DNA of 64,000 bases from Euglena gracilis (lineage: Eukaryota), in NCBI GenBank assembly GCA_039621445.1, contig CP154954.1, positions 23,634,954-23,698,953 on the forward strand. Direction: 5' to 3'. How positions within the stretch are numbered: position 1 is the stretch's first letter; the number at the start of each line of letters is the position of its first letter. Of this stretch, positions 3,799 through 38,600 are shown piece after piece. Made by a program: the position numbers and the translations under genes. The notes below the pieces were generated by a model, which was not told where the DNA came from, ran no database searches, and saw only the letters and a program-made list of their open reading frames with translations.

Positions 3799-3870
3799 GC
3801 GGGACCTGGGTCTCGAACCCACGACCTCCCGCGTGTGAGCCCAGCACCTTACCGAATAAGCTACTCGAGC
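3799..3870 (-). ncRNA. tRNA-derived Pol III module in right TRIM LTR
   Basis: Same sequence as 3109-3180. Confidence 0.65.
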
Positions 3871-4585: not shown

Positions 4586-4610
4586 TCTCTCTCAGTGTCC
4601 ATTTTTTTCG
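4586..4610 (+). other. Degenerate euglenid spliced-leader exon at the head of a repeat 5' end
   Basis: TCTCTCTCAGTGTCCATTTTTTTCG followed by ACATATCACATGGCCGAGAAGTGAAAGCCC, the same junction as the better copy at 40078-40102. Confidence 0.7.
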
Positions 4611-4697
4611 ACATATCACATGGCCGAGAAGTGAAAGCCCACGGAGGGGTTCAATTTACAAGTACTGGTCTAGTTGAAGTCCCTGGTGCAGTTCAAG

Positions 4698-14591: not shown

Positions 14592-15015
14592 TTCTGCAGA
14601 TCACTTTCAAAAAACTCAACCACTGGCTCTGAAAACTGGGAGAAACAGAAACACTGGCCAACCCAAAAAACAAACAAAAACTGAAGAAACCAGAACAGAA
14701 AACCAACCACTGGGTTCAGGACCAGGTCAGCAAGATGATGAAGAACTTGCCTCCACCAAGATCTTGTTCTGGACAGCAAGGTGAACAGCACCACTTACAA
14801 ACTTCCTCAACCAAATAACCAATACAACAACTGTTGACAAACTCTCCACTGTGAACTTGTTCACCACAGCCTCAATGTCAACTTCCTGTTGAAGGTGTTG
14901 TTCTGTACCAGCAACTCGGTTAACCTTGCCTTCAGGAACACCAACTTCTGGAACTTCAATAACCAGTGAAACAATGTTGAATCTCCTCGAAGACGTCTTG
15001 GACGATTGGAACAAC

Positions 15016-15030
15016 AAACCTCTGCGACCA
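15016..15030 (-). promoter_or_regulatory. Primer binding site
   Basis: TGGTCGCAGAGGTTT starting 4 nt inside the 5' LTR; TGG is complementary to tRNA CCA. Confidence 0.7.
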
Positions 15031-15034
15031 ACTT

Positions 15035-15225
15035 TGGACGTCTCAGAATATTCTTTTGTTTTTATTGAAATCCTCGGATTCCCAATTTTTCTTGATATCC
15101 CAATTGTCCCCAAAGACGTAACACAATCAATGTTGAGACATAACCAGAGCCAGCAGTATGCACAGGAGGAAAGGTTCGAATTAGGAATACAAAGTTCGGT
15201 TCAGGCGGTTAGTAAATAGTCCGCA
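15035..15225 (-). repeat. 5' LTR
   Basis: Direct repeat of 8175-8365, adjacent to the PBS. Confidence 0.97.
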
Positions 15226-15642
15226 GCCACCACGTCTGGCCCAAAATTGGCCACGACACCCAAAACTGGCCCGCATTGAACCAGATTACCATGACATTGC
15301 AAAAAATGGACAGAGCAGATTGTCCAACAAAACTCCTTCCAAGAAGTTTATCCCCACAGGGAGGCAATGGGGGGTCCAGCAGGGCAGAACGGGAAGGCCT
15401 GGGGTCGACCCCTCACCCACCACATCATTTTCACCGATTTCGGGAAAACGGGAATTTTGGGCAAAACATTTTTTTGACATTTTTTGAAAAATGAAACCAA
15501 AACGCACGGGTCCAGACTGTACAGTGCCCCCATTGGGGAGGGTTTGGGTCGAAACCAGAGATCTCTTGCCTAGCCCCCCTTCTCCCATAAAAGGGTAAAG
15601 CACAGAAACAGGGAAGAAAACAAAATGTAGTGACATTTAAAC

Positions 15643-16388
15643 CAAGGTTGGCCGTTCGTTTTTTTTTAAACAAAAAAAACATGTTTTTTTTAAAAAAAAT
15701 GTTTTTTTTAAAAAAAACAAAAAAAACGCCACAGGGGGTTTGGGTGAAAATTTTTTTTGGGAGAAGTATTATATAGTTTCCCCTTTTTGTGCAGCTTATT
15801 TCTTCACATGCCTGGAAGAAATAATCAATGCAACAATTCGGGGTTCATGGGCAAAAACATGTTGATTCAAACTGGTGCAAATCCAGCAACGAGATTTTTC
15901 TCAAGGAGTCACTTGGTAGCTTCATCAAACAAAAGAGTGCTCTGGGAGGTTCAAGAAAAGGAATTGTTGCATTTCATCACACGTGTATGGTAAACTGTGC
16001 TCTCGCCTGTCAGTTGACAAGGCGAACAAGCTCACTTTCCTTTACCACTGTTTCAATGCGTTCGGTTGCGACGAGCAATCGGACAACGAGGAGTGAACCC
16101 TATGAAATACAGCGGCCTTTCAAATGTGCCATGCCTTGATTCACTTGGTAGGTTGTATTTTTTGGATGGAGATTTATGGCATCAATTAAAAAAAAGAAGG
16201 GAAAAAAATGCCATTTTCTCGTTCATCTCCCTCGAAGATGTTTTCGACTTTTCCCCCGAAAGGGCGATTTTCAAAAAAAAACACAAGAATTTTGCATTTT
16301 CAAAAAAAACATGTTTTTTATTGCGTTTTTTTTTTAAAAAAAAACGTTTTTTGTTTTTTTAAAAAAAACAAAAAAAACGCCAACCCCG
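15643..16388. mobile_element. hAT-like non-autonomous element
   Basis: 8-bp TSD ATTTAAAC; imperfect TIRs CAAGGTTGGC / GCCAACCCCG; A/T-run subtermini. Confidence 0.7.
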
Positions 16389-17199
16389 ATTTAAACCTTC
16401 ACGTGCCACCAGGCCAGAGCCAGATGGATGTCGATAAATGCCAATAAGCCGAAAAGCCATGTGGGGACCACAGCTGCCCGTGGCCACTGGTGGGGACCGA
16501 TGTGGACCACAGGGACAGGCCAGGGGCCAATGAATGTAAAATTGCCAGCCACAGCACAAACTTGCAAACAGCACAACCAGGTGAAGTAGCAATGTGATCA
16601 GAAGCAAACACAAATGTATCAAAGTTGTCACGGTCCTTTGCCCAGGTCAAATGACCCGCAAGGATGACATTTTGTGCTGAAAAACAACCTGAATCAGGAC
16701 TTGCCCGGATCGCGGGGCGTTTTTTTTCCAGCTAATTTCCCATCGCGGCCAGCCCGACCTCATCCTCCTCTTTCAGATCCTCAACACTGAAGCCAATAAG
16801 TGGGTGTCGGTGGCATTAGCCGGTGATTCTTGTACAGGTGTGCCTGGATTCGGCACAACTGGTGGGAAACGGAGTGGTGGTGTAGCTGGGCGTCTACTCG
16901 ACACCGTACGTACTGCATGCCTTTGGGCTTTCGTCTTGTAACCCAGTGAAACGGCGGAGGTACCGCTACTCGCTTGCCCTACCTCATGTGGAACGCATGT
17001 AGGTGTGTCATTGGGTAGGGGGGAGGCTTTCTCCGTACCCCGGGTGTGGAAAACGGTTGTTGGTGTGGTGGATAACGGTGTTGCCATTGTGGGTAACGGA
17101 GTTGGAAAAGTGGTTGTCATCAAGGTGGATGCCAACGGTGATGGTGGTTTGGGTGGCATTGAAGTGGTGGGTGCTGTGCACAAACCGTGGGAGTGGCAA

Positions 17200-17940
17200 T
17201 CCACAACCATTCGGGTACTGGCATAAAAATGGGTATCCCAAAATTACGTCAGACCCGTGAATTCCGGACTCGTAACCCCAAATATTGGTGAAATGTTGTA
17301 ACTGTGGGGGGGTGTGCTTGGGAATGATGGGCAAGAGTATCTCGAGCACACATCCCAAATCACCACCGCACATGGGGGTGTTTTCCGCGGTTGTAATTTT
17401 GATCGGTTTCTTGGCGCTTACCAAGAGAGGTGTCGGTATTAACCATAGCTGGCACTTCGTTTAAAGCGAAGTAAAAAAAAACACGTTTTTTAAAAAAAAA
17501 CATGTTTTTTTTAAAAAAAACAACAAAAAAAAACGCCATTGAGGGTCCAGGGCAAAAAAAATTTTTGTCTTTAATTTTAGCTTTTTTTGCCCATAGTCGG
17601 TCAGAGAAAGACACCAAATTTGGGATGTTTCAAGTTGAAACATCCCAAAATGGCAGAAAAATGCCCTATTTTGACCATTCTTGTTGAAGACAACCAAAAG
17701 TATTGGTTTTCAAGTCATTTGAGCTAAGGTTGGTTCACCCTTGCGATCAAGGGCAAAATTTGGACCATCATTTTCCCCTTTGTTTTTTTTGCCGTTTTTT
17801 TTGCCCGTTTTTTTTAATAAAAAACAAAAAAAACGTTTTTTTTAAAAAAACAAAAAAACGCCAGCTATGGCATTAACCCCAACCGAAAGCAGTGCAATGC
17901 GACAACCAGTGTCAATGAGAATTTTAATTTTAGTGGAGAA
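17200..17940 (-). pseudogene. Retroviral-type aspartic protease remnant of a second LTR element
   Basis: KIKILIDTGCR near 17900-17935, continuing past the MITE as PIKITTAE..SDVILGYPFL. Confidence 0.6.
17444..17869. mobile_element. hAT-like MITE
   Basis: TIR CATAGCTGGC / GCCAGCTATG; 8-bp TSD GTATTAAC / GCATTAAC. Confidence 0.8.
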
Positions 17941-18520
17941 ATTTTGAATGCGGATTTCTGCTTGGACGAGTAATTCCATTGGTGGTACGCAAAGTGAAGG
18001 GTCTGGCGGAAAGACGTTTGCATGCCAGCTTTCCTATGAACCCTTTCCTACTTTGCTCAGCATTCCGAGCGGAAATGTGGAGTGGGGGGTAGGGGACCCG
18101 AAATAATTCCGGGTACTGACCGTGAAGGCGGATGGGCAGGGGGGGCAAGGTTGACCAGGTCTTACCTCCATCTGTTCATCAGCCCAGAGGTCCGTGCCCT
18201 CGGACCTCGGGCTCCCCTACTCCAAATCCGAACCAGCCGCATAGCCGGCAACAAACGATTGGCTAGCCAGTACCCCCCCCCCCCCCGGGTCCTTAAGCAA
18301 ATGCCTGGTCTGGTTGGCTCGCAACCTGACAGGGGTGTCCCGCGCCACCCCCGCCCCCCCAGGTGCCGTTTGGCCGGACCAACCTAGCCGGCTGGCAGAC
18401 CAACGTAGCCGTCCAACATGCTGTCTAGTCCGTCTGTCCAGATGACAGTCACTGTCGCTAGCCGCCCGGCTGTGCAGACCAAGGGTCATGGCTGGAGAAT
18501 GGGAAGGAATAAATGTGTTA

Positions 18521-18921
18521 GTCTGCGTTAGTCAAGCGGACAGAGGGCCGGCTTCGATCCGTACCTCCGTCAGACGCGCGGGTTCGATCCCGGATCGGAC
18601 CAGCCACAGCATCGCGACGCTACCGGGCGGGGTTAGGAATGGCCACGGCGGGAAGTTCCGATGGCGTCGCTGGTGGACAAACAGAACGGTGGATCGTCCC
18701 ACCGTTCCCGACGGGTGAGCGCCGTAACCATGTGTTACGGCGGTTGCCTGCCTTGCATCGTAGCATCATCTGGCTTTGGCCTTCAGCTCTGCGAGGTAGA
18801 CAACAACACCCGGTCGGGATGGAGGACTTCGAGTGCCTCGTACCCCAGGTAATGCCCCCCAGCGGAGTGCAGCTCCACGGGTGAGAAATGAATGGGTGCA
18901 AAAAATACACACACACACACA
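18521..18921 (+). mobile_element. Possible tRNA-derived SINE
   Basis: tRNA-like head 18521-18602 (TAGTCAAGCGG, GGTTCGATCCC, ends CCA), CG-rich body, (CA)n tail; no TSD found. Confidence 0.4.
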
Positions 18922-20498
18922 AAGTAGAATTTCTGTTAGCAAAGGCCGTAATCTTTCACGTAAGTAATTTTCATGAAATTTCACGGCTTTTGTAAGTAAT
19001 TTCGTGGACCATGAAAAGTTCGATTTTCATTGACTATTAATATTTGCGTCCGACGGAAAGTGAAATGCTTCATTGCACTGGCGGTGTGGGCCTCGTCTTT
19101 TATCAGTCTTGTAAAACATCGTTTTAAATCAGTTTTAAAACAGGCGTCGGAAGTTAGACATAAGGGGGGCTGGTCGTCTTGCCGGCTATTGGCTGTGCCA
19201 GCGGTCTCCCTATGAAGCGCAGTCCTGGACGTAAGAAAATTTTGCGTTCGCAGTTGGGATGGAGTCCAGCCGAAGCCGTCGTGTTCCAAAAAAGGGGGTC
19301 TTTCCCCCAGCTTGTGTGCCACCAGCTTGAAATCCCATCTTCTTCCGAAAAAGTTTTTTCAACAAAAAACCCCTGGCACCTGGGCTGTCCGGGGGGGAGG
19401 GCAAACCCACCGCTCACCACGGCACTAAAAATTGGCACCGCCAGGAATACGGAAAGCCTGGTGGGGGGGGGGGGGTTGGCCCCCAGGTTGAGGGGATTCC
19501 CGTAGAGCCCTGGGGGGGGGGGGTGACAGTTTTCAGAACATGGCAAGAAGAAAACCCTTTTGAAAGATAAAGATTTCAGGAAACACAAGTAAAGGAGTAA
19601 ACAAAAAAAGAAAGTGCGCAATTAACAACAACAGAGCCCTGTGTTTTTTCCGCAAAACACAGGACCCTGACAACAGCTGCCAATACCTTCACTTCTTCTT
19701 CTTCTTTTGTAACTTCTTTGACTAAACTTCACATTCTACACGTAGAACCTGTGAGTGGAAGAATCGGACAAATGGGACGGAAAAAAGAACATTGGCAAAT
19801 CTGGCAAAATTCCAGAATGAAGCCACATGTCCTAAAACTAAAAGCAGACAATGCCAGGTGAAAACACTCCCAAAACACAGGTCAAAGACAGAGCTGCAGC
19901 AAGTGTTCTCTGTGAAATGGAAGCAAAAGTTCCTTCATGTAAAACACCACCAGAAAACCATATGGACCGCCAGAAAATGATAGAAAAATAGAACGCACAA
20001 TAGAAGACCTGCCACACAAGAGGGTGGCACTCAAAATTGTCACCCAGCGGAGCGTATTTTGAAAAAATGGCAATTTTTCGAAAGTGGTCTAGATGCACCA
20101 GAAAAGACCAGGAGAACAATTCTTCAAAAGTCACCTTCAGGGGGGCACACCTGCTTCGACGTTCAATAAATACTGCATCAATATATTCCTTATCCTTCAA
20201 ATAGTTGGATTCTGAGTTCCAAACAAAGAAAAACAACGAATTTCAAGGGGAGAACACACCGGTTTTGCTCCCAATTAGGAAGTCCTTTCCGTCCGCGATC
20301 GCCGCGAATGCTTTAAAATTTATTAGATTTCAATTTTCTGAGATTTCATGAAAATATGGAAAAATGCAATAAAACCGTGCAAATTTCACTTTACTGAAAT
20401 TTCAGGCCTTTTGAAAACTTTTGGCCATTGCTAATTTCTGTTCAGACATACCGGCCGGCGTGCACAGTTTATGTACATAGTGCTCCGGCAATCAGATA

Positions 20499-20735
20499 CC
20501 ACCTCCGCCCCCCTAATTGACCCCCCCCCCCTAATTGACCAAACGCCCGGGGAAAATTTTTTCAACCCCCCCCCCTAATTGACTGCCCGGGGGGATTCTG
20601 TGCTGAAGCACCCCCTAATTGACGATACCCCCCCCTAATTGACGCCCCCCCCCTAATTGAACCCCCCCCCCCTAATTGACCAAAAGGGGGGTCCCGTGGA
20701 GAGGTCCCACGGTCAATTAGGGGGGGGGGAGGTGG
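20499..20735. mobile_element. TA-flanked MITE with CTAATTGAC repeats
   Basis: TIR CCACCTCC..GGAGGTGG, TA on both sides; inverted copy at 32032-32265. Confidence 0.85.
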
Positions 20736-22535
20736 TATGTACATTCCACATCGTCCCCTTGGGACGAAGTGGGGCGAAGTGTCTGCGGTGGCCCTTTTGG
20801 TGACCTCAAACAGCACCGCCTTGGCAGAGGTCCCCAGGCCTCCCCATGTGCTCAGGCCGAAGGGTGAGAAGCCCCACCCCTTCGCCTGACACGGGGGGCC
20901 ATCCGTCTGCACTTTCCTGGTTTCCACCTGGTTGCAATGCCTGTGGGCATTGTCCACCACCAGTGGGTGCTCTCCCAGCCCCGCGGGTTGGCTGCAGACG
21001 ATATCAACTGCCACGTGTTGCCCCCGTGACCAGTTGATGAGGAGAATGTCGGCTGGTCTTTTGTTCGCCAAACACTCTGCCTCCTTCTCCACCGCAATGT
21101 TGTACCAGACACACATCGCCGCAAAAGCATCTCGGAATGCATTGTGCCGTTGGGTGTTTCCATTCTGCTCGCAGCAGACGAAGGGATCTCCGAAGGGATC
21201 AATGGACCCCCGACACAGTGGGCACCCCGGCAGCGTGACGCCTGAAGGGAGGATGGGCAGGCCAAGCCACCACCGCAGTAGCAGCCAGTATTGGGTGTCC
21301 GAGAAAGCTGTGTGCTGTGCCTTGCTGGGCAAAGTCCGCAGCCATCCCGTTGCCACCGGTCCCTTTTGGCATGCCCGTCTCACCCGGTCCCTGGCAGAGC
21401 CGACCGCGTCGACTCGCTGGCTCTGCATTTCCGCCACTTTCTCCGCCCACCACCGTTGGGTGGCGTGTTCTGGTGCTGCGGAGGAGAGTGGGGTGGTGCC
21501 TGCGAGCCAGCTGGCCACGGGATCCATGTTGGGGCCAAGCTGTTGCTGCAACCGTTGTAGCGTGTCTTGCATGTCCGGGGATGGGGTTGCCAACACCGAG
21601 GCTGGCACCCCACTGCTTGGCTGCCGTGCATCCCCAGATTCAGCAAGGCCGCCATCCGTGCCGCGGGTTGCAACACTTCGGGGTCCGAGATTCCGAGTCC
21701 TGCTTGGCGGATGGGCAGGGAGACTTGATCCCATTAACTCTCGGTGATTCCCGAGGAGATCTTGTACGGCTTCCTGCAGCCGTGCCCTGAGAATGAGCGG
21801 GGAGTCCCGTGCGTTTTCTCTCTCCGTTGATCGGAGGAGGTGGACCACCCGACATCCGTCAAGACAGTACCGCAAGAGTGCGTGCCGCACTTGCCCCTCT
21901 GGGTATCCCATGAGCCGTTCCAGGAGCAAGGTCGCCTTGTCCACGGTCTCTTCCCATACGGCTTGGCATTGTGGTGCTCTTGGCGTGTCCTCTTGTGCTG
22001 TGCGATGCTCCCGCGGGGCATCAATTGGGACGCCCAGGGTCGTGATGCCCCTCGGTCCTCCAAAGGGAATCACGGGCACTTGTCGTCCCAAGTGGTCTTC
22101 TGCCAAACCGTCTGGGTAATGTGGCCCGGCTTGATTGACCGTTTGCATCCCAGGTCCCCAAAATTTGCACTTGGCCAAATTGAGGTGGAGGCCTACTCGT
22201 TCCAGGACCGTGCTGAGGTCATGGAGGCGGGCCAACACCACTGCTGGTTTCCCCACGATGTGGCCGTCGTCGAGGTACCAAGACTCCCATGCCCAGTCCC
22301 GGGCAAAGCACTTGTCAAGGGCGTAGTCCAAGCCCAGTACAAAGCCCAAGGGCCCGCATGCGTCGCCTTGATGTACTCCGATCTGGCTTGTACACAGGAA
22401 GCGCCCTTGGCAGAACAACGGACTTGGTCCACTGTAGCAAAAGCGCAGCCAGTTGTACGCCGTGGGTACCTTGGCCAAGCATCCCCGGAGCATTGCATCC
22501 CTGCTGATGGAGTTGAAAGCATTGCGCATATCCAC

Positions 22536-24005
22536 GGAGCTGGGGTCCCCACGGCCAGCCAGATACCAGCCAGACCTCCTCCTCCTCTTTTTTTCACCAG
22601 CCACCAGCCAGACCTCCTCCTCCTCTTTTCTCCCAGCCACCAGCCACGGCCAGCCGCGGCTGGCCGTGGCTGGGGCGCCTCCTCCTTTTTTCCAGTACCT
22701 TCCGTAGAGCGCAAAAATTATAGTATGGCAAAGTCACCGGGGCGCAACCCCGTCGTTTTTTAGTACGCTCGGTGGCTGACGCCAGGTTTAGTCACAACAT
22801 CTACGCTGTCGAGCAGTAGGAACCGCGGTTCATGGAACCAGAATTGCTGCGCAAGAAGAAAATATCTTTCAGGGGAATAAACATTTCTCCAACATATTGC
22901 ACGGCAGCAGCATGTGACTGCGCCGGAAGGAACCAGGCGGTGGGGGGTGGGTCGGCCCCCCCACCCACCCACCACGGCATTTTCACCATTTTCTGGGTGG
23001 AGAGCAACGAATTTTTACGGCCGCACTGACTGACTCCGCCGGAAGCCGGAGGGGGGCAGAGAAAAAAACAACCACGCAGCACGGAAAAGCCCCCCAAAAC
23101 AACACAAATTTTGCAAAAAAAAACGCAAACAAAACGCTTTTGTGCCCCCCTTTCCAAGAGAACCGCACCCAAACAACTCCTTCCTCAGAGAAGTGGCCCA
23201 AAACTGCCCACGACCTTTGGCCAAAAACTGGCCACCACATCTGGCCCAAAACTGGCCACCAAAATCTGGCCATGACCTGTGGCCCAAAACTGGCCACCAC
23301 ATCTGGCCCAAAACTGGGCATCACATCTGGCCCAAAACTGGCCAGCACATCTGGCCCAAAACTGGCCATGACCTGTGGCCCAAAAATGACGAACACATCT
23401 GGCACAAAACTGGCCAGCACACCTGGCCCAAAAATGGCCACAAGAAGTGAATCAAACCATTGAAAAGTAAACCAGAATACAATGATATTACAAAAAAAAT
23501 GGACAGACAAAAACCTTCGACTTTTTAGGCACAGCAACAGGAATCAGAAAACACACAAGATAGACATTCCCAACATAATGTAGCAGTTTGTCCAGCTCCA
23601 GCAAACTCCTTCCAATAAGTTCATTTCACCTCAAGCCACCTGTGCAGCACTTAGTGTACTCAGCACCATATCATCATCTCCAACAGCGCCTTTGCCCAGG
23701 TCAAATGACTCTGTACTGCAGGTCTGACATTTTCTGTCCTGCAATGAAAATGTGAAGTTGCGCAGAAAACACCCTGAATCAGGACTTGCCCGGATCGCGG
23801 GGCTTTTTTTTCAGCTAGTTTCCCATCGCGGCCAGCCAGACCTCCTCCTCCTCTTTCAGATCCTCAACACTGAATCCAGCCAGACCTCCTCCTCCTCTAA
23901 ATCCACCCAGCCAGCCGTGGCTGGCCATGGCTGGCCAGACCTCCTCCTTTTTTTTGCCAGCCAGCCAGCCGCGGCTAGCCGCGGCTAGCCAGATACCCCA
24001 GCTCC
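22536..24005. mobile_element. Non-autonomous TIR element with 3-bp TSD (PIF/Harbinger-like)
   Basis: TIR GGAGCTGGGG / CCCCAGCTCC; TSD CAC; excision restores VLQVDMRNAF; the empty site is visible in the second CRE copy near 35385. Confidence 0.85.
23195..23442. repeat. 24-bp tandem repeat, about 10 units
   Basis: CTGGCCCAAAACTGGCCACCACAT and variants. Confidence 0.9.
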
Positions 24006-26482
24006 CACCTGCAACACCACGTGGTCGTTGTCCCCTTGGAGGTGGCTTGACTGGCCGTAGCGTTGCAGGCCCATGCCCACCATCTCGGCGGCGTTGCGCA
24101 CTCCCACCCTGCACTGCCGCGGTTGTAGGGCTGCCAACTCCATCGTCACCGCTTCAGAATGGACAAGGCACTTGCCCACCACTCGCCGGAGTGTGTCCCC
24201 GACGGCAATGGGCCGCACCCCCCCATCCTTCTTGCGGAGCGGGATGAGCGTGGAGGCGCATAGCACTTCTCGCACGCTCTCCGGGAATGATGTGGTCAGG
24301 GCCGTCGCAGCAAGCTTGCCGAGGGCTTGGACCAGGGGCCCCCCCGGCCCCAGCTTTCGGCAACACTCACTGAGGTGGATTGGACGCAGCCCAGATGGTC
24401 CGCCTGCGGACCCCGGGGGGAAGGAGACCACGGCTGCCCAGGCCCGCTTGGACCACTGCTCGTTGCTCTCCTCTTCGTCCATGCCCTCGTGCACCAGGCG
24501 GCAGGCAATCGAGGTGGGCAAATCCCCTGCCGGGACCAAGTGTGGCTGTGGTGGGGGATGGAGGTCCCTCAGTACGGCTTCCACACCTGGTTCCTGCGAG
24601 TTGACCAGCCCATCTGACACCAACAGCTTAGCGGCCTTGGACAGTGCGCCTTCCTCCACCAACCCCACCTGGGATGGTGACATTTCCCCTTCCTCCTCCC
24701 GCTTGGCCTGTGCCCTTGTGCGCGCCGGTTGGTCCAATGGGGTCTGCCGTGCTTGGGCGTTCGCCTCGGCCCACAAGGTTCCCAGTTGGCCTTGCTGAAA
24801 GAGACGCAGCCGTCGGTCCATGTCATGTGCTGCCTTCCGCTGCTGTTTGCTTCCACCCCGGCCTGATGAACGCAATACCAGCTTTGGGAAACACATGAGA
24901 CGGCAGGTTGGCACTGGGACTGCCACATCCCTCACCAGATGTGCCAGCTCTTGGGAGATGGCGGTGCGACACATTGCCGGGATGTGTCTCACCGTGGGCA
25001 CATGCACGACGAGCACCCCATCAAACGTCGGCGTCATTTGTGGGCATCGGCTTGTGGTTGGTGTTCCTGGCTGTGGCAGGGCTGCATCCCTCGGGGGGAT
25101 GAGAGACACAGGGCCCCGTGTTTCCTCTGCGGTGTCGAGGCCTTGCGGTGCCACCTGGCAGTTCCTGCATCTTTTGCTTTGGGGCACAAGTGAGCGGCAG
25201 GGGCCTGCGCAGTTTGGAGGACTGCTGGCGGCACCAATTGGCCGTGCGACACGTGGCGCGCGGCCAGGTGCGACACCAACGCTTTGCGGGACTTGGTGGT
25301 GAGGGCTTCTGGGCACGATGGAAAGGGACACATGAGGGTTGGTGGTCCCTCTGCTTCTGCTTCTTCCTCTTCGTCCTCAGCCGCCACGTCATCCCCTTGC
25401 TTTTCTTCGACGTGGCGGCCGAGTGCCACGGGAACCCGTGGCGTGTCCCTGCTTTCTGCCCCCTTCCCTCCCCTTGGGGATGTTCTTCTTGGTGGTGCCT
25501 TTGGCTTGGGTGTGGTTGTGGCTGTGCTGCTGCTCGCTCTGCTTCGCTTTTTTCACCAGCCGTCCGTCCGTCCGTCCTTCCGCCCCCCTTGCAAGTCTTC
25601 GACACCGACTTGGGCAAGAGGTCCAGCCACTGAAGGACTGGTTTGAGACGCCCTCCTCTATCCAGAGAGCGAGCCTGCAAGAAACTCGACAACAATTTTG
25701 GCAAGATCGCATGAACGCCCAGAGATACAAGGAATGGAAGCAAACTGGCAGCCACCGAGACTTGTGTCGCAAAAGCTTACAGACCGCCAACTCAGGGGCT
25801 TGGAAAAATTGACGCCCTTCTCAAGCTCTTGGAACCCAGATGGAACATGTTGATCATCGCCTGGCACTCCAGTGGTGGCTTGGGCTCCCACTGCTCAACC
25901 CCAATGAGGTGGGGGGGGAGAATTTGTGCCCAATGTATAGTATGGATGCATGGGGAGACCATGTAGTTACCTGCAAGGCCACTCAACGCCAACTCTACTC
26001 CAAGACTGGTTACTTGCCACAGCACGAGAGGATGGTATTACCTCCTTTAAAGAAGCACAACTGCTGGATGGCTCCCGACCTGGTGACGTACCTGGCGGGG
26101 TGGACCAGCCTTGGCTATTGATCTCACTATTGTGCACCCATTGCGACCTTCTGAACCACGCCCCTCACCAGACTCTGTCAAGAAAATGTTGCTACGTGAA
26201 GAACAAGCCAAACTCAATAAATATGCAGTGGCATGTGAGAAAGTCCGATGGGACTTCAAAGCATTGGTCCTTCACCTGTGGGGAGGCATGACCAGTAGGG
26301 TAGATTCGATTAATCGATTAATCGACTAATCGTCCGTGGCCGCCGATTAATCGAATCGTTCGGTGGGGGGAGATTAATCGGTCCACAAAAACAGGTCAAC
26401 GGAAACAAGACAACATCTCACCATGTCATACCCCAATGTTCAAGACAAAGGTTATTATGGAAAATGTTCCTATTAAGTAACA

Positions 26483-26554
26483 ATACATGTAGTTCAGTGG
26501 TACAACGCATACTTCACAGCTGTGAGGTCGTGGGTTCGATCCCCACCATGTATG
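26483..26554 (+). tRNA. tRNA-like gene, anticodon CAC, non-canonical
   Basis: Acceptor ATACATG/CATGTAT, AGTGGTA D-loop, T-arm GTGGG-TTCGATC-CCCAC, downstream TTTT. Confidence 0.7.
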
Positions 26555-26618
26555 AAGTTTTGTAACCCATTTTATCCAACTTTTGTTGGTGGTTTTGTCA
26601 ACAAAAGTTGAACTTTAA

Positions 26619-26690
26619 AAGACGAGGCAGGAATCGAACCCACGACCACACGGTCATAGAACACACGCTCTACCACTTGGCCACTCGTCT
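26619..26690 (-). tRNA. tRNA-like gene, anticodon position TAT, weak D and anticodon stems
   Basis: Acceptor AGACGAG/CTCGTCT, box A TGGCCAAGTGG, box B GGTTCGATTCC, TTTT at the 3' end. Confidence 0.65.
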
Positions 26691-26858
26691 TGCTGTACAA
26701 TTACAACCCATAAACAAGGTAAAGAGGTTCTTTTCCTGGTTTTCCAGTGGTTATCCTGGTTTTCGCCCCATCACGATGAATGTTTGGTATGAAGTGTACT
26801 ATTTTGGTTTTTGGGGTTGTTTCAGTGATTCCGAAGGCAGCCAGAGTTATTAGTCACA

Positions 26859-27720
26859 ATGTCGTCGTGGGTTTGGGAACACTTCAAGAAGGGCGGCGAT
26901 AAGAAGTCTGTCAGTTGCAAACACTGCCCAGACGGAAACACTTTTGCATACCATGGTGGGACAACATCCATGATTTTCCACCTGCGTTTGAAGCACAACA
27001 TCACACAGTCACCCACACCAAAAGGTTTAATTTCAAAAATTTAAGATAAAAACCCTCAATAATCTATTCAGGACAGTCAACACTTACCTCCCACCTTTTG
27101 AGGAAAGTTCTTGTTGAAAGGGCTCGTGAAGAATTGACCTCAGAGGAGTTCATTTGCGCTATATGGGCTCGAAAAGCTTTAGCACACGATCTCATCGAGG
27201 ACGCAGCCATACAATTCCTTTCCACGTTTTATAATCAAATAATTTTTGCGGAAATATCAACGTATCAACAAATCTGTGTACAAAAAGATCGGACGAGGAA
27301 TTGTCACCTTGGGAGTAGATGGATGGACGAACACGCGGCACAGGTTCAAATACTTTAGTAAATTTGACAAAAATCATTTTTATCACACTTGTTGGCAACC
27401 CACATTTTCGAAGCAAAAAAAATGCACCATGGACCATGAAGGATTTTTGGGAGGGGGCTCAGAAATGCATCTGGGGACCTCCCCATCGCTTGCAATTTAA
27501 TTCCAAGTGGTCTGAGCTCCAAGTGGTCTGGGCGACACCCTGCAAAAGAGCTTTTCTGCACAAAGTTTGCTTCATTCTGACCTCCGTTCCTGCCTCTCCG
27601 AGGAGAGTATTCGTGCCCTCATGTCAGTTCGCATGAACATTTTGCGACTGTACGATATTCCATGTATGCCTCGGCGGAAAAAAGCTAAAAAGCAATGAGC
27701 ACAATAGAAACAGAAGGAAT
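26859..27720 (+). pseudogene. hAT transposase remnant (BED finger, first catalytic Asp, C-terminal dimerisation motif)
   Basis: WVWEHF..CKHC..GGTTSMIFHLRLKH; putative GT-AG intron 27025-27071 splices in frame to GQSTLTSHL..IWARKALAHDLIED; TLGVDGWTN; ILTSVPAS..RVF; most of the core is missing. Confidence 0.85.
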
Positions 27721-28050
27721 TTGGCTGTCCAATCCAAGTGCTTTGCCTCCTGTGTCTGGGTCCAGTCCACACATTTTCTCACTGACTAGCCATTACATTC
27801 TTCGAAAAGTCAGTCGCTTTTTTTTTTGCGGAGAACTGTCAATCACCACCCCCCCCGGGGGGTCGGCACATCACATTTGCCCTCAAAACTCCCAGCACTG
27901 AAAAACCGACTTTGCTCGGCCTTTGAAAAACGGCCTTTGCCTATACTCCACCACTGAGCTATTCGCTTTTTGGTGGATTTCACATTTCCGACACATTTTC
28001 TTTTAAACACTAAAACAAACTCTTCTGAAAAAGGAAAAATGTCCAAAAAG

Positions 28051-28121
28051 GGGGCGACCGGGGATTGAACCCGGGACCGTAGAGTTGTTACCCTTATGCT
28101 CTACCACTAAGGTATTCGCCT
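28051..28121 (-). tRNA. tRNA-like repeat unit, anticodon AAC
   Basis: GGCGAATACCTTAGTGGTAGAGC..GTAACAA..CCGGGTTCAATCCCCGG. Confidence 0.6.
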
Positions 28122-28187
28122 TCTGACCACACATTCCTTTTTGACACAATACCAGACTCTTCTGAAAAAAAGGAAAAAGTCCAAAAG

Positions 28188-28258
28188 GGGGCGAACCGGG
28201 ATTGAACCCGGGACCATACGGTTATTAGCCCTATGCTCTACCACTGAGCTATTCGCCT
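28188..28258 (-). tRNA. tRNA-like repeat unit, anticodon AAT
   Basis: GGCGAATAGCTCAGTGGTAGAGC..CTAATAA..GGTTCAATCC..TTCGCC, followed by TTTT. Confidence 0.65.
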
Positions 28259-28337
28259 TCTGGGTGGCTAAAGTCTCACACTTTTTTTTTAAACACAATA
28301 ACACACTCTTCTGAAAAAAGGGAAAATGTCCAAAAGG

Positions 28338-28408
28338 GGGACGACCGGGGATTGAACCCGGGACTGTAGGGTTGTAAGCCCCATGCTCTACCACTGAGCT
28401 ATTCGCCA
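28338..28408 (-). tRNA. tRNA-like repeat unit, anticodon TAC
   Basis: GGCGAATAGCTCAGTGGTAGAGC-A-TGGGG-CTTACAA-CCCTA..CCGGGTTCAATCCCCGG. Confidence 0.65.
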
Positions 28409-28645
28409 TTTTAAGTAAAGTAAAAATTTTAGTTGACGAGGGCTCTTACCCTTACGATTTTTTGTTGTTATTTTTGTGGATTTTGATTTTTTTTGGGTTG
28501 GTTTGCGAAAGTATCACACATGGACCAATTAATCGTTAATCGTCTGGGACCCCCCGATTAATCGCAATTAATCGTTCGACTTCCCAAAACGATTAATTGG
28601 CACAACCCTATGACCAGTGAAGGCAACCTGTTGCTCCATCACATC

Positions 28646-30731
28646 CAGGGGGCGTTTAAAAGCGTTTGATACTAAATTCGGTTTGGTATTTAACTCGTCG
28701 GGTTTAAATCTGTTTTAATCCCGACGAAGATCCCCCCTCGGCCGGATTTAAACCACCGAGGTTAAGCATTACGCATTTAAGAATCATGAGGAAATTCCTA
28801 ACCCAGAACCTTTCTGTGGATGGTGTGTTGAGAAACAATGTCCTGTTTCCCTTGTTTTTCCTTTCCTCCCTTCCAGAGAGGCTGTCCCTGGCGACAACGT
28901 TGTCTTCAACGTGAAGAACATGTCTGTCAAGGATATTCGCTGTCATGCGTTCGAACGCCAAGAAAGATCCCACCAAAAAGGCTGCTGACTTCACTGCGCA
29001 GGTAAGCTTCTCTTCAAACGCTCAGCAGGACTTAAGTTGGCAGAGTGTTTTCATAATCTGCTATCACAAGGTTGGTTTCAAGGCTTTCATGGGGGGGTTA
29101 GGGTGTGTGTCCCTTGACCAGGGTTTTGGAGAAGTGCCAAAAAAATTTTCAACCCTCAGGCCCCCTTGTCTGCCTTCAAAAATGTTTCTGGTTGGTGCCA
29201 TTCTGTATGCGAGATGGACAAATTGGCGTTTTGTTCCTTTTCCATTCACGTTTCTTCAGGTAATCATTCTGAACCACCCTGGTCAGATTGACAACGGTGC
29301 CCTCGTGCCCGTGCTGGACTGCCACATTGCCGGCAGAAGTCCACTGGCAAGATCTTTAAGGCGAAGACACCGAGACGAAGATTGACCGTGGCCATGCGTG
29401 GGGAACAATCAGCTTCTGGAGATCCTGAGGCCCAGGGTTTGACTTGGCCCGTAGAGCCTTGTTCGTGTTTCAGTACCCTCCCCTCCGTCCCCTCCCCGCT
29501 ACATGAGTTCCTGTAAACTGAAAATCTCCTTCAGCCCCCCCACTACCATCTCCTCCTCCCATTATGTACCCCCACCATTATGTACCCCCTGGGGGGGGAG
29601 GTACATAATGGGGGGGGATGGTAGCTCACTGCCATAACACTTTTTCTAAATTTCCCAAAAAAATGCTCAAAAATCGACGTTTTTGGGACGTTTTTAAATA
29701 GTGATATTTGGCAAATGTGCTGAAAATTGACCATTTATTGCAAACATCCAAAAAGTTGCCAAAAATGACCCCTTTTGGGCTGTTCGGTCGGGTCTGGGAA
29801 TAGGACCTGGGTACCCCCCCCATTGTGTACCATGCCCCCCCCATATAAGACCCCCCCTCGGGAGCCAAAATCCCAGGGGGGGTCTTATATGGGGGGGTCT
29901 TATATGGGGGGGTCAGTCCCGGCCAAAGGGCCGGCCTTCGGCCGGCCAGGGGGGGTCTTATATGGGGGGTCTTTTCTGGGGGGGGGGCATGGTACCTCCC
30001 CCCCATTATGTACCTTCCCCCCAATTTCGGCGTCCCGAGGTACATAATGGGGGGGATGGTAACAGCAATTCCTGTTCCAGTCTCGGACTGCCATCCCCCC
30101 GAATGTTGCTGTTTTGGCCCCCGAAGAAAAAATTTTGTCCCCCCTGAACTCCGTTTTTTTTTGGGCACCCCCCAGAATGTTACATTTTTTTGCCCATTCT
30201 CAGACCAACGCCCCATCTGTGGCGCTGTCAAACCCTGGAAGTGGTTGAAGTCTTTCCATTTGCAAATGTTTTGGTATTAATCACCCAGGGTCTTTGGTTA
30301 TTGGTCAAAGTTGAAGCTGAAGTTTAAGAAGATTAAACGACTCAGCGAACTGCAGTTGCTTCCACGAGTATTTTGTTGCTTTCGGTGTTCATGAGGTCAA
30401 ATTTTTTTTTCACGACACAGTTTGAAAAAATTCAATGTTTCTGAAAAGAAATGCAGAAAAATATTCTCTCCTTTTTTGGCAAAAAAACGTCGGCGATGTC
30501 TGTACCGTTCGACGTGCGCCTTCGGCGGTGCCTCCCTCACCCGACGGAATAATCTACCACCTGAAAAGCAAAATGAGACGGAAAATTTTTTCCGGCTGAG
30601 ACAATGAAAAATTTTTGGGCATGACACCAGAAACGGAATTAAACCGACGAGGTTTGGACCCAAAACGGAATTAAACCACACGCTTTTAATCCCTTTTTAT
30701 TAAGTACCTTGCGCTTTTAAACGCTCCCCTG
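28646..30731. mobile_element. Pack-type TIR element with 2-bp TSD carrying an EF-1alpha fragment
   Basis: CAGGGGGCGTTTAAAAGCG / CGCTTTTAAACGCTCCCCTG; TC duplicated; removal restores the RLE frame; nested MITE at about 29544-30062. Confidence 0.8.
28877..29390 (+). pseudogene. tef1: EF-1alpha genomic fragment: two exons and a GT-AG intron (29002-29259)
   Basis: EAVPGDNVVFNVKNMSVKDIR..SNAKKDPTKKAADFTAQ | GTAAGC..TTCAG | VIILNHPGQIDNG..PVLDCH..TKIDR. Confidence 0.92.
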
Positions 30732-32031
30732 TCTGTCGACTTTATGCCGAAAATACCACAATTAGGGAAAGCAAAGCCGAGAGAGTGGAGCATTTTTGGC
30801 AATCCTTGTCTGTTTGCATCATGCGCACAGTAGCCTCGCAACTGCGGCTAACTACCTATACTGGGCCACAAGGGCCCCAAGTGTTTCCAGTTTCCACGGA
30901 TCGAATGGGCAGTGCATTGGGGGTGGCTGGCCGGCTAGCCGTCCGAGCCGTCCGGACCTCTTCAGCCGGACCAATGCTGGACGCCCAGCCATCCGTCCAG
31001 ACGAAGCATTTTTTCGCCAGCCGTCCGTCAAGCCGGACCAATGTCTGTCTTGCCGGCCGGCCGGACCAAAAAAAATTCCTGAGCACCACGGGCAATTGCC
31101 CGCTCCTGTTCCAGCTTTGAATCTGTCAGCAACAACTTGGCAATCTCAACCTTGGAGCCAAGGCTGGATTGAAGTTTTCAAGAGAAGAGGAGGATTGAGG
31201 TTGAGGTTGAAGTGAGGTTGAAGTTTCAAAACTTCTCCCAACTTCAACCCGGGAAACACTTGCATTTTTATGACCTAAATGATTTTGTTCCTTCCTTAGA
31301 AATGGCTGATGGCACTGCCAATCCACCGAAACGGATTTGTTTTGCCAAGGGCCACCAAGGAAAGAGGAATATGGATCTAGCACGTTACTTTGAGGCATAT
31401 GGTGCTCCGTTGCGGGTGAGGTGCAAATTATGTTATCAAGCACGGTTTGATGAAGGGCTAAGAGTCTTGGAGGAAGTCCTCAAAATCCTCCGAAAAATGG
31501 CCAAAACTCGTCAAAATTTGTAAAATCTGTCAGATTCTGGTGAAATTGTAACACCGTTGCGGAAAAAACACCTGGGTGTCCTCATGGTGAGTCCGGAGGA
31601 TGTCGAAAGTGGCCTACATTTGTGGACCTTAGTGTGCCAACGTCCTCGGAGAAGAATGCTCCGAGGCTCGTTCCTTTTGGAACCTGCATTGACCGTCCGC
31701 TGACCCACTGAGTGATTCATATGTGATAACAAGGAAGCCGTTGCAAAGTTTACACTGCTTTCATCCTCCCTTGCATTTTACAATGGGGTTGGATTTTAGT
31801 GCTTCCATTTAGGTTTGCCAGGTTTGTCATTTGGGGCACTCAAATGGTTCATTCAAGGGCAACACACATGGAGAACACATCAAATACTCATCTTCCGGTG
31901 GGGCGGGATTTGGACTGAAGTTGGAAGAAGTTAGATTGAGGTTGAAGTGAGGTTGAAGTTTGAGAACTTCTCTCCACTTCAATCCAGCCCTGTTGGAGCG
32001 CATCCACACCAGCCATGGCAAAATTGGTATA

Positions 32032-35637: not shown

Positions 35638-38600
35638 CGCGAACCGGCGGGTAGCACAGCTTCACCCAGACCGTGCCCCGGGCCCAGGGAGACGTCTCTT
35701 TTGGCCCTCGCCACAAGGAGAAACCCACAAGGAGAAACTCCTCATGACTCCTTGTGCGGCCACAGGTTGCCGGTAGATACTATGGGTGTAAAGTACAAAA
35801 GGTTGTATGGAGTGCCGTGCATGTCCCGCGGTCAGTGGTTAGAGGAAAATGGGAAAGTCCCATCTTCAATATATACGGCGGGGAGAGAGGGGTGTGTGTG
35901 TGCTTTGCTTTGCGCATCAAAGCCATTCCAAGCCCCTGCCATGCACTGGCCTTCACACCCCGCCTCTCCCAGCCGTTATGTTAGCTTAGTTGTTTGGAGG
36001 CGGATGCATGTGGAGACGAATCCTTGGCCTGCTTCACTCATGCCACCGTAGCAGTCCATCACCAGTGGGATAAATGTCCAACCTCGTCGCTTGCAAGGCT
36101 CCCCATACTTGGCGATTTTGTCTTCTTCCTGTCGATTGTGCCATTTGTCCACCTGAGCTGGAGGTGACGTGGAGGGTGCAAGTGGGAGCCTCACTGTGAC
36201 ATCAATGGCTGCGGGACCATTTGCGTCGAATCGAGTGATAAAAACATCACCCGGTCGTGCTCCATCCCCAGCTTTTTCTTCTCGACGTGCAGGAAAGCCA
36301 GCTCGTTGTGCCAGATTCAAGACAAAGCTTTGCACTGCCCCGTGCCGCCGAACGAGGTTGTTACGGTGGCAGCAGACGAGGTGGTGGCCGGCTGTGTCAA
36401 GTGGGCTCATGCATCGAGGACATCCAGGAGAGTTGCTTTCTTCTGTTTTTACCACAGGAGCGCCAAGCGTCCATTGGAGGAGGGCAACAAATCCTTTTGT
36501 GGGAACAAGGGTTTTTGTGCCAGCAGAGGGGACTGCACACGTCCGCTTCTCGCCGAAAAGGTACACCCAGCGTCTCCGGCGCGGGACCCCCCCCCCCCGG
36601 GGGGGTCCGGCCCGGACCCACCCACCCACCCCCCCCCTCCCCCCAGGGGGGGGGTCCGCTGACTTAAAAAGAAGCCTGGTGGAGCCGAAAATTTTTGAAA
36701 ATTGCCTTTAACGGGCTCGATTTTGGGGGGGTCCCTGCCCCCCCCTCCCCGGGGGGTCCCGCGCTACCCTGGGTGGGTGGGGGGGACCCCCCCTCCCCCG
36801 GGGGTCTTAAAAAGAAGCCTGGTCCCCACAACCGACACTTGGACATATTCAGGGAAACCCCAATGAGGGGTCCTTCACGCAGAATGTATCGGACTGATGT
36901 TTCCAGTTGTTCTGGGGTGCCCACGAGATGGGCATCGTCTAAGTACCATGCTTGCCATCCGACCAGCTCACCCACTTTTTCAACCAGATTTTGAACTGCA
37001 ATTGCGAACGCCGCAGGACCACATGGGTCACCATGTTGCACACCACTTTTGCTGCGGAAGGAGGTTGAACCGCAGCACAAAGTGGAATGCTCACTGTAGC
37101 AGCTCTCCATCCATGCTGTCATCTCAGGGCAGCGTTCTCGAACAGCGTCCAACATACCTTCACGGCGCAGGCAGTTGAAGGCATTTGCAAAGTCCAATTG
37201 CAGCACACCCCAATCTTGAGCACCTGTGTGATGGAGACAGCCAACAAGCTGCTGAAGCCCAATGGCGACAATGGAACAAGGATCAGAATGGCCAACACCG
37301 GACTGTCCAGGTTGATTGTTGCGAACTGCTGTTCTCACGACTTCCTGTCTCATGATCACTTTTCCCACCAGACGACGCAGGCACTCGCCCGCTGCTATGG
37401 GCCTGGTTCCCTCTTCTTCTGGAGTAGGTGGGCATTGGTTGCCAAAATCATCGGTGTTTTTGGCTGCCTTCACTTTCCGCAAGGCTGTCAGTCTGGCTGC
37501 TGCCATGATTGCGGCAGGTCCTTTTGGCAAACCATTGTCAATGGTGCGGTAACAGAAGATCGTGAGTTCGTCCAAAAGGTCATCTGCATGGCAACCTGCA
37601 TCATGACCCAGCAAACACCGAAGGTGGTCGGGCCTCAAGCCAGAGGGGCCTGGGGAGGATTCTGGGCCAAAGCTGAAGACTGCCTATAGCACTATGGTCC
37701 GGCGTTGTTGCATGTCTTCCTCAGAAGTGGCAGCTGGTAGCGAACGTCTCATGGTCGCCGGGCCAAGTCCAGGAGGCGGTTCATGTGGATGTAATTGCTG
37801 GAGGCGTTCGTGTACCAAGGGGTTGTCGGGGTCTTGAACGCCATCAGAAGTCAACAAGTTGCAAGCTTTGGATACTGCACCCCTACCGACCAGTCGTTCT
37901 AGTCTGGAGACAAATTCTTCTTTTGTTACTTCTTCCTCTTTCGAGGCAGCCAGTCTGGTACGTGGTCTCTTTCGTGTGTTAGTAGCTTCCACTGGAGCAG
38001 AGGTGTCCTTCCAACTCTCCAGCGTCGGGCGGCTTAGGTATTGTCGTGCACGAGCCTGCAGGATGCGACCAAGACGTTCCCAGTGACCGCGCCCACCACG
38101 GCCGAAGGGAGCCAGCACTGCCTTGGGGAAGCACCAAAGGGCGTGCAAGGCTTCCCAGGTGCTTTCCATTGCCTCAGAGCATCGAAATGAACATTGATGC
38201 CGCAACGCACCCCCTTTCAGGACGATCCCCTGACCTCCATCCAACTTGGGATGAAATCGCCCACGATCGCCATGGTTCCATCAACCTCATCCCTCGCGGG
38301 GCCATCCAAGCTGTGGCCGAGGTCTATTGCACACTCATGCGCCGCCTAAACGAACAAACTCCAAAGCTGTCGATACCTGGATTTTTTTTTGACATCCGCA
38401 TGTTTTTCACACCCGTAGGCACTAATCCGGCCGGCACATCAAAGTAGCTATCCCGGGGAACATAACGGGAACCCCCAATCAGTTTCCAGTTTTGGGGTCA
38501 AATCATGGTTTCCCGTGGGGCCATGTAAGTGGAACAGGAGCGGAGGCAGGATTGGATGGCACTTCGCTTTGAGCTAGGTCACCCCCAATAAGATCCGGAA

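Follow-up and report, generated by a model that had tools for sequence, protein, structure and literature searches.

A hAT-type transposon in the repeat-rich genome of Euglena gracilis carries tRNA-like Pol III-type units inside its own termini, on both sides of a decayed transposase gene. We conclude with moderate confidence that this copy belongs to a BED-finger hAT family, has lost internal sequence and was mobilised in trans, and that the pseudo-tRNA genes of the family are inherited passenger DNA.

Results

The element lies on the plus strand of the 64-kb window, by which we mean the whole stretch of DNA that was analysed. It occupies positions 26296-28609 (2314 bp), and a common A/T allows its boundary to slide by one base. 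One copy of the 8-bp TSD ATGACCAG, of the length characteristic of hAT insertions, stands on each side (26288-26295 and 28610-28617). The short TIRs of hAT elements follow a YARNG-type consensus, which is fitted both by the left terminus, TAGGGTAG from 26296, and by the right terminus, ...CAACCCT up to 28609, whose reverse complement is (T)AGGGTTG; the ends read TAGGGT. Contigs from public runs (two from run X1 and one from run X7) carry the host retroelement without the element, indicating that the insertion was precise. Their joint, 26287->28610, skips 2322 positions, equal to the 2314 of the element plus 8, with 9 letters fitting either side. The ORF list and the same empty-site contigs reveal that the insertion broke a host ORF (26087-26295, +), a retroelement C-terminal domain that resumes past 28617. 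The earlier note had described an element bounded by TIRs and a TSD, and this is borne out by the duplication on both sides, the TAGGGT ends and the empty-site contigs.

All 12 occurrences of the subterminal motif ATTAATCG in the window fall within ~90 bp of the two ends of the element, and CGATTAATCG occurs 4 times against an expectation of 0.02. From the motif positions, the left end (26296-26381, +) comprises the TAGGGTAG terminus and subterminal ATTAATCG repeats, which are presumed transposase-binding sites. Repeat and motif positions together define the right end (28525-28609, -), consisting of subterminal ATTAATCG/ATTAATTG and the ...CAACCCT terminus. Summed contig depth peaks at the left-end bin and at the right end, the right end being highest in X1, X7 and X15. 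Motif and blastn searches of the 64-kb window found no second copy of the element, and metagenome scans with the right-end 24-mer and with a T-arm-plus-terminator pattern gave no matches. Eleven viral-contig loci matching the end pattern were dismissed as chance, as blastn detected zero further similarity to the element. Looking for a relic of the dinoflagellate spliced leader gave 0 matches.

The transposase gene survives as a ~0.85-kb frameshifted remnant. Its best-supported piece is a BED zinc-finger exon beginning at an ATG (26859-27025, +; Pfam zf-BED, E = 7.9e-8, 32.7 bits against a cut-off of 20.6), which 168 library proteins match at E <= 0.001. The library-wide BED search returned mainly multi-BED proteins; the best single-stretch matches were to the BED proteins P0042, P0044 and P0019, of which two have a hAT dimerisation domain. 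A word-indexed protein search with the BED exon against longer proteins gave no matches. The second piece (27065-27229, +) follows the BED domain in related BED proteins and was located by tblastn with P0106 (residues 71-125, 33% identity; summed E = 5.8e-17, counting the BED match of P0106); Pfam had no match on it. From the ORF list, a further frameshifted piece (27270-27344, +) has a DGWT-type motif and, read by eye, would be the start of the catalytic core, the remainder of which is lost; neither Pfam nor BLASTP lent this piece statistical support. The C-terminal piece (27543-27698, +) closes with a stop codon and matches Pfam Dimer_Tnp_hAT weakly (E = 0.091, 13 bits against a cut-off of 21.4), over profile positions 52-83 of 84 only. 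P0019 had no significant match to the non-BED pieces of the remnant. P0025 resembles a sister BED exon that has decayed (57% identity over 69 residues), and its N-terminal part had no significant match to the left cassette.

The RNase H-like DDE catalytic core is absent from the window copy. This absence fits a deletion derivative, and we class the element by its ends as a non-autonomous member. Non-autonomous hAT elements are internal-deletion derivatives, as Ds is of Ac. The window copy is thus non-autonomous, and no autonomous copy was found among the contigs from public runs. The transposase that had been described as bracketed by tRNA-like cassettes does have cassettes on both sides, and its BED domain is significant; it is not an intact transposase.

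Five tRNA-model matches and one 5' fragment are present inside the element, with no others in the 64-kb window. ARAGORN called four tRNAs across the window, every one of them within the element, and four of the five full units score 36.5-54.8 bits with Rfam RF00005, above its gathering score of 29. Two convergent units precede the transposase region. U1 (26483-26554, +; anticodon CAC; ARAGORN, Rfam 49.8 bits) has a perfect 7-bp acceptor stem, one mismatch in the D-stem and one in the anticodon stem, and G73. The acceptor stem of U2 (26619-26690, -; anticodon TAT; ARAGORN, Rfam 36.5 bits) is perfect too, with two D-stem mismatches, three mismatched pairs overall and C33 replacing U33. Between U1 and U2, the repeat search revealed a perfect 12-bp inverted repeat with a 10-nt loop (26577-26610), in a region with T-runs on both strands.

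After the transposase region stand three full units and one partial unit, all on the minus strand. Unit A (28337-28409; anticodon TAC; ARAGORN, Rfam 49.8 bits at 28344-28402) has an unpaired acceptor stem, and Infernal aligns model positions 7-64 only. The best-kept cloverleaf is that of unit B (28187-28259; anticodon AAT; ARAGORN, Rfam 54.8 bits at 28188-28258). Its acceptor stem has the mismatch A1.C72 and its anticodon stem a G.G pair; the T loop is 6 nt long, and position 73 is C. In unit C (28050-28121; anticodon AAC) the acceptor stem is broken and the D-stem has one mismatch; its Rfam match (28052-28120) scores 27.8 bits, slightly under the gathering score. Partial unit D (27940-27973; repeat family D3) is the truncated end of the array; it keeps the first 30 nt (5' side) of a tRNA-like unit, which include an intact box A. 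ARAGORN, Rfam and the repeat search thus agree with the layout given in the earlier note, a convergent pair before the transposase region and three full plus one partial unit after it. None of the five full units is a sound tRNA: a fully paired cloverleaf with U33 and a 7-nt T loop occurs in none of them, position 73 is G, U or C and in no case A, and one unit has C33.

A T-run of at least four T begins within ~4 nt of the 3' end in all five full units. Boxes A and B, judged by eye against the consensus, are intact in four, unit C having two box A changes. It had been claimed that each full unit bears both boxes and a T-run; this stands for the T-runs, and for the boxes it fails in the altered box A of unit C. 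Box B is identical across the three paralogues A-C. In an alignment of these three paralogues, 2 of the 22 columns of boxes A and B are variable against 46 of 130 elsewhere (p = 0.013), which hints at constraint on the promoter elements; against the other tRNA part (14 of 52) the difference is not significant (p = 0.12). None of the runs listed as containing the stretch is recorded as RNA. In the raw RNA run X24, of which ~5% was read, almost no reads fell on the element, the library type being uninformative for tRNA-sized RNAs.

In the three-unit block to the right (27972-28409, -), delimited by Tandem Repeats Finder, repeat family D1 and alignment, a tRNA-like gene and its spacer are repeated in tandem at the DNA level. 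The head-to-tail units measure 138-150 bp each, the spacers of 65-78 nt being homologous to one another, and Tandem Repeats Finder reports a period of 137, 2.9 copies and 81% matches over 27991-28407. In the alignment, paralogues A-C diverge by 14-18% in the tRNA part, compared to 0 differences between the window and X1 contigs over 27393-27677 and 28053-28249, indicating that the array predates the spread of these copies. The ORF that runs through units A-B had no matches in a word-indexed search of proteins comparable to it in length.

Cassettes are also found in sister copies, as the earlier interpretation presupposed: diverged contigs from X1, X7 and X15 retain units beside element-specific sequence. 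The unit adjoins such sequence in record 19 of X7 (over 26387-26556) and in record 6 of X1 (over 26617-27024). Record 13 of X15 has a shorter array, of one full unit and a fragment, and shorter arrays are likewise seen in record 21 of X7 and at the joint 28106->28286. Between conserved ends, the number of internal array units therefore differs from copy to copy (three plus a fragment in the window). In X7, the joints 26666->27829 and 26798->27805 retain both cassettes with the transposase remnant gone. The left cassette is gone from MITE-like derivatives (joint 26392->28270). A head-to-tail form with a short spacer, seen at high depth in X7, is the first candidate for a donor of the units outside hAT ends. 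Summed depth in the DNA runs, which in the absence of a single-copy baseline gives no copy number, was 14,000-32,000 in cassette bins versus 721-6,590 in BED bins in X7, and 83-222 versus 33-43 in X1; the cassette values may be inflated by other tRNA-like DNA, which could cross-match with likeness set to 80%. Fourteen runs contain half or more of the sampled words of the stretch.

Discussion

How could a cut-and-paste element come to contain such units? We propose that the non-coding regions of this family, between the subterminal repeat block and the transposase gene on each side, bear pseudo-tRNA genes. These would have started as genuine Pol III genes that were captured, or duplicated, at the DNA level together with their 3' terminators. 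Unequal exchange or replication slippage would then have expanded the right-hand unit to a tandem array, a mode of growth that predicts different unit numbers in different copies. Later the units would have decayed as tRNAs, leaving box A/B-like promoters and T-runs. The deleted copy itself was probably moved in trans through its TIRs and ATTAATCG motifs. The units may still bind TFIIIC or yield short Pol III transcripts, presumably as a by-product and not as a selected function.

Several observations favour the view that the units are passengers. The insertion is precise, with an 8-bp TSD and empty sites, and the transposase is reduced to remnants; all five units have defects that make them unfit as working tRNAs; a T-run closes every unit, and the repeat unit takes in the spacer; the array is older than the spread of the copies and variable in length between them; and cassette bins exceed BED bins in depth in both DNA runs. 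Other observations speak against it. As no autonomous copy was seen, the cassettes may belong to one non-autonomous subfamily only. The depth of the cassette bins may be inflated by cross-matching, box B is invariant and the boxes differ from all other columns at p = 0.013, the presence of units on both sides of the transposase gene is not predicted by a single random capture, and the donor locus was not found.

Some of these points would be expected if the units were selected modules, kept on both sides as TFIIIC/Pol III-bound boundaries shielding the transposase gene from heterochromatin, or as sources of small RNAs. The transposase region has units to its left and to its right, and these are kept in diverged copies and in deletion derivatives; box A/B-like sequences are intact in four of five units despite defective cloverleaves, box B is invariant in A-C, and the boxes contrast with all other columns. 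In yeast, tDNA/TFIIIC sites are reported to act as chromatin boundaries (PMC3395662, PMC13578239); the feature in common with such tDNA/ETC boundaries would be box B-containing TFIIIC-type modules, the resemblance here being one of sequence alone. However, the boxes do not differ significantly from the remaining tRNA part, the units were recognised via their boxes, so that finding boxes in them is partly circular, neither the window copy nor the deletion derivatives contain a gene that could be shielded, and the MITE-like derivatives have dropped the left cassette. The inference of the earlier note, that the cassettes serve to keep the element expressible or to make small RNAs, thus gains no support from these data, the window copy having no transposase left to express. 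We therefore consider selected modules of this kind improbable. Still less probable, in our view, is the wider proposal that the hAT family keeps insulator or small-RNA modules of its own, with selection acting on boxes A and B while tRNA function decays.

It is unlikely that tRNA-derived SINEs inserted independently into a pre-existing hAT copy, an origin that ranks below both of these proposals. The units do have the tRNA-related head of a SINE, with boxes A and B intact in four of five, their scores resemble those of TE-associated tRNA-like sequences (the bird values come from a different scoring model), X7 contains high-depth tRNA-like contigs (for example joints at depths of ~3,200 and ~1,500), and the spacer behind unit A contains an A-run. 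Yet the T-run terminator comes directly after the tRNA-like part, so a Pol III transcript would exclude the spacer, and the 65-78-nt spacers cannot belong to the transcript of a Pol III retroposon. Own TSDs or tails, named in the earlier note as marks of SINE insertion, were not found: the repeat search detected no direct repeats flanking the units and there are no tails, each unit being followed at once by its T-run. Moreover, the right-hand units A-C are arranged head to tail and their spacers share homology, the units are common to diverged sister copies, and among the 15 listed joints, out of 35, there is no case of precise removal of a cassette. The pattern would not be that of independent SINE insertions; it suits DNA-level copying of tRNA genes along with the sequence that flanks them. 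It is very unlikely that the transposon spreads working Val/Ile tRNA genes and adds to the tRNA supply of its host, even though the units have promoter boxes and terminators of Pol III type and the anticodons CAC, TAT, AAC, AAT and TAC are those of valine and isoleucine only, with no duplicates. The broken acceptor stems of A and C, C33 in U2, the stem mismatches in U1, U2, B and C, G, U or C at position 73 and scores of 27.8-54.8 bits all argue against it, and the anticodons of paralogues A-C are one substitution apart, making the set a weak coincidence. Scarcely credible is an assembly artefact or chimeric join between a tRNA cluster and a transposon: we found no point in its support, the junctions of cassettes and element-specific sequence are spanned in independent runs, by records 5, 6 and 8 of X1, 19 and 21 of X7, and 9 and 13 of X15, and the sampled words recur in 14 runs as described above.

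The element resembles known non-autonomous hAT elements in its 8-bp TSD, its short imperfect TIR starting from TAG, its repeated subterminal motifs, its BED-finger transposase remnants and its many shorter derivatives with only the ends in common. Unlike them, it has tRNA-like Pol III-type units in the non-coding regions on both sides. Literature searches, excluding subscription journals and Repbase, returned no report of a hAT element with tRNA-like units, nor of a eukaryotic DNA transposon with tRNA genes; this silence is weak evidence of novelty. Among the nearest cases, DTC84 in Donax trunculus, a clam (PMC3879986), and Tetris in Drosophila virilis (PMC4079207) are reported as tandem-repeat-containing MITE or foldback transposons, and share with our element a non-autonomous DNA transposon body whose core holds a short tandem array of variable unit number. 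Here, in contrast, the repeat unit is a tRNA-like gene with terminator and spacer, and an extra, non-tandem convergent pair lies on the opposite side. TE-associated tRNA genes of birds have a median Cove score of 36.5, compared to 71.7 for standard genes (PMC8044555); they too are tRNA-like sequences with Pol III promoters on a mobile element that have decayed to low scores. The bird SINE tRNA genes are 5' heads of RNA-copied retroposons, whereas our units lie inside a cut-and-paste element, with the terminator directly behind them, and appear to have been duplicated as DNA. Dada also brings a DNA transposon together with tRNA genes. It is reported to insert into tRNA or snRNA genes with 6-7-bp duplications, leaving the gene halves outside its ends (PMC3706591); the units described here are inside the TIRs, and the target was a retroelement ORF.

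If the units are indeed passengers, cut-and-paste transposons, besides SINEs, would spread and multiply tRNA-like Pol III promoters, and tRNA-like copies within transposons would raise the number of predicted tRNA genes and give rise to potential TFIIIC sites. Were the units instead found to be under selection, the element would be a transposon equipped with insulators of its own, and this would bear on how mobile elements remain active in repeat-dense chromatin.

Insertion site and boundaries of the element

The hAT-type element occupies 26296-28609 (2314 bp), starting with TAGGGTAG at its left end and finishing with ...CAACCCT at its right end, and it is immediately flanked on each side by ATGACCAG (26288-26295 and 28610-28617). 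Contigs of four public sequencing runs were aligned to 25900-29000. In runs X1 (n = 2) and X7 (n = 1), contigs joined 26287 to 28610, skipping 2322 letters (2314 + 8), with 9 letters fitting both sides; a near-identical joint, 26286 to 28609, was also present in X7. The contigs joining 26287 to 28610 come from further copies of the host retroelement that lack the element. The element is therefore precisely inserted, with 8 bp duplicated. The subterminal regions of its two ends can be aligned in inverted orientation. All 12 ATTAATCG motifs in the window lie within ~90 bp of these ends, and CGATTAATCG was observed 4 times against 0.02 expected.

The window is eukaryotic and rich in repeats, and its ORFs include a Ty3/gypsy-type pol and several further reverse-transcriptase ORFs. 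The pol ORF (8652-13130, minus strand) is open over 1492 aa and contains RVT_1, RNase H, rve and a weak Chromo domain. Residues 36-100 of its stop-to-stop frame weakly match Dam, an N6-adenine DNA methyltransferase (E = 9e-4), with an NPPF motif in that stretch, which may represent a methyltransferase module on the retrotransposon. The ORF broken by the element encodes a product similar to the C-terminal domain found in other retroelement ORFs of the window. The insertion site is this domain in a reverse-transcriptase-bearing retroelement (26087-26295 and 28618 onward); by eye, the domain recurs in the minus-strand ORFs 20562-22733 and 35976-36707, and a Pfam search with it gave no match. Just 3' of the element lies an EF-1alpha-like pseudogene fragment (28880-29330, plus strand); its introns are of the GT-AG type, and its reading frame is disrupted. 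Reads of the RNA run X24 stack on it at 90-95% identity and a depth of 767-2435 and continue into unlike sequence, so they derive from the real gene or genes. Beside the pseudogene, short G/C-rich repeats, both tandem and palindromic, are clustered at 29476-29983, with units of 15 and 16 nt at 29559-29589, 29876-29914 and 29950-29983.

A transposase remnant

The BED-finger transposase described in the earlier note survives as a frameshifted remnant only, although the BED finger itself is well recognized. The zinc-finger exon (26859-27025) starts at an ATG and matches Pfam with E = 7.9e-8; in a library-wide protein search it retrieved 168 proteins at E <= 0.001. One of these hits, P0025, is 57% identical over 69 residues and looks like a decayed sister exon. 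Another, P0106, matches both the exon and 27065-27229, indicating that the latter continues the same protein. A frameshifted DGWT-type piece (27270-27344) was recognized by eye only, and the similarity of a C-terminal piece to the hAT dimerisation domain covers the domain's last 32 positions, with E = 0.091, below the Pfam cut-off. BLASTP of the non-BED pieces against the full-length BED/hAT protein P0019 returned nothing significant. The coding sequence left amounts to ~0.85 kb, compared with roughly 2 kb expected for a transposase, and the window copy is unable to move itself.

Five degenerate tRNA-like units

All four tRNAs that ARAGORN predicted in the window fall within the element, and the Rfam tRNA model gave five matches, in agreement with the positions originally proposed for the units. 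The left pair consists of U1 (26483-26554, plus strand, 49.8 bits, anticodon CAC) and U2 (26619-26690, minus strand, 36.5 bits, TAT). The right array, on the minus strand, contains A (28344-28402, 49.8 bits, TAC), B (28188-28258, 54.8 bits, AAT) and C (28052-28120, 27.8 bits, just under the gathering score of 29, AAC), in addition to a 5' fragment, D (27940-27973). Just beyond unit A, 16 nt at 28439-28454 share 81% identity with unit C around its anticodon arm and may be a relic of another decayed unit.

In the alignments, each of the five falls short of a sound tRNA. One base of the 3' acceptor strand is missing in units A and C, and their acceptor stem no longer pairs; B shows an A1.C72 mismatch and, in its anticodon stem, a G.G pair, and its T loop is 6 nt long. 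Mismatched pairs number two in U1 and three in U2, which also has C33. At position 73 the units carry G, U or C. Each full unit had been credited with box A, box B and a T-run: the T-run (at least 4 T, beginning no more than ~4 nt from the 3' end) was found in all five, but both boxes are intact in only four, by eye against the consensus. The five anticodons specify valine and isoleucine only, each occurring once. Since the units are too defective to work as tRNAs, and single substitutions separate the anticodons of the three paralogues, this set is a weak pattern, probably a coincidence helped by paralogy.

Sister copies carry the cassettes

At least half of the element's sampled words were present in 14 runs, and some part of it in 20 rows from 17 studies. 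Sister copies were seen as contig pieces only; 24 pieces (with 2155 more beyond these), 15 of 35 joints and 12 of 18 records of the letters between them were considered. Those pieces that differ from the window, and thus derive from other copies, connect the cassettes with sequence specific to the element. X7 record 19 (26387-26556; 27 differences) joins unique upstream sequence to the whole of U1, and X1 record 6 (26617-27024; 8 differences) runs from U2 through the BED exon. X15 record 13 covers 28567-28338 and, with 11 letters in between, 28039-27859, its array being one full unit plus the fragment. X7 record 21, with a shorter array, retains unit A and the right end. Among the joints considered, 26666 to 27829 and 26798 to 27805 in X7 lack the transposase remnant and keep both cassettes, and 26392 to 28270 is a miniature form with unit A as its only unit. 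At 26733, 26815 and 26833, between U2 and the BED exon, all or nearly all depth differs from the window (13 X7 contigs at 26733), so the window copy has private changes relative to the multi-copy consensus. Summed depth in X1 and X7 was highest at the ends, intermediate at the cassettes and lowest at the BED exon; these depths are relative, no single-copy baseline having been found, and at a likeness setting of 80% tRNA-like DNA from elsewhere can match as well. X7 joints at 26647/28234 and 28261/28046 (depth ~3,200 and ~1,500) place tRNA-like units head to tail with ~25 letters between. This short-spacer array is homologous to the hAT-borne one, and is possibly its donor or another subfamily.

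With the 8-bp duplication, the empty-site contigs and the units in diverged X1, X7 and X15 pieces, the proposal that the units lie inside one element bounded by terminal repeats and a target duplication was borne out, and they are present in sister copies. On structure the claim holds: non-autonomous members of this hAT family carry the cassettes by inheritance.

Origin and role of the units

Units A, B and C belong to a 138-150-bp repeat arranged head to tail, in which each unit forms the tRNA-like part and a spacer the rest (Tandem Repeats Finder: period 137, 2.9 copies, 81% matches). Pairwise identities, gaps counted, are 82-86% between the tRNA parts and 63-77% between the spacers. A terminator directly follows each tRNA-like part; a Pol III transcript would therefore end before the spacer, and unit plus spacer were not copied as a SINE but duplicated as DNA. 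Neither tails nor flanking direct repeats marking the units as separate insertions were found. SINEs do carry tRNA-like sequences on a mobile element, with low tRNA scores, much as the hAT-borne units are carried here (PMC8044555), but for the reasons given independent SINE insertions are a highly improbable source. In the left cassette, a perfect inverted repeat of 12 bp, with T-runs on either strand, lies where U1 and U2 converge. That a terminator stands immediately after each of three independent units (U1, U2 and the array ancestor) suggests an origin as true Pol III genes, which would have been taken up as DNA with their own flanks. The array paralogues differ by 14-18%, compared with 0 differences in X1 contigs over 27393-27677 and 28053-28249, so the array predates the spread of near-identical copies.

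The earlier note read the units as selected insulators or small-RNA modules, and two papers describe tDNAs and TFIIIC sites as boundaries in yeast (PMC3395662, PMC13578239). Among the A/B/C paralogues, variable columns number 2 of 22 in boxes A and B, 14 of 52 in the rest of the tRNA part and 32 of 78 in the spacer, whose end aligns poorly. The boxes are less variable than everything else (p = 0.013) but not clearly less than the rest of the tRNA part (p = 0.12), with three paralogues making a tiny sample. This is a hint that the promoter elements may be under constraint, and selected modules seem unlikely. Working tRNAs are contradicted by the defects in all five units, and the alternatives beyond selected modules and SINE insertions are less likely still. 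We lean towards pseudo-tRNA genes that the family inherits as passengers and that retain some Pol III features.

A search of the open literature gave no report of tRNA genes borne by a cut-and-paste transposon of a eukaryote. Dada transposons target tRNA genes and do not carry them (PMC3706591), whereas the hAT element carries tRNA-like units. Internal-deletion derivatives and non-autonomous DNA transposons bearing tandem repeats are well known (PMC3879986, PMC4079207).
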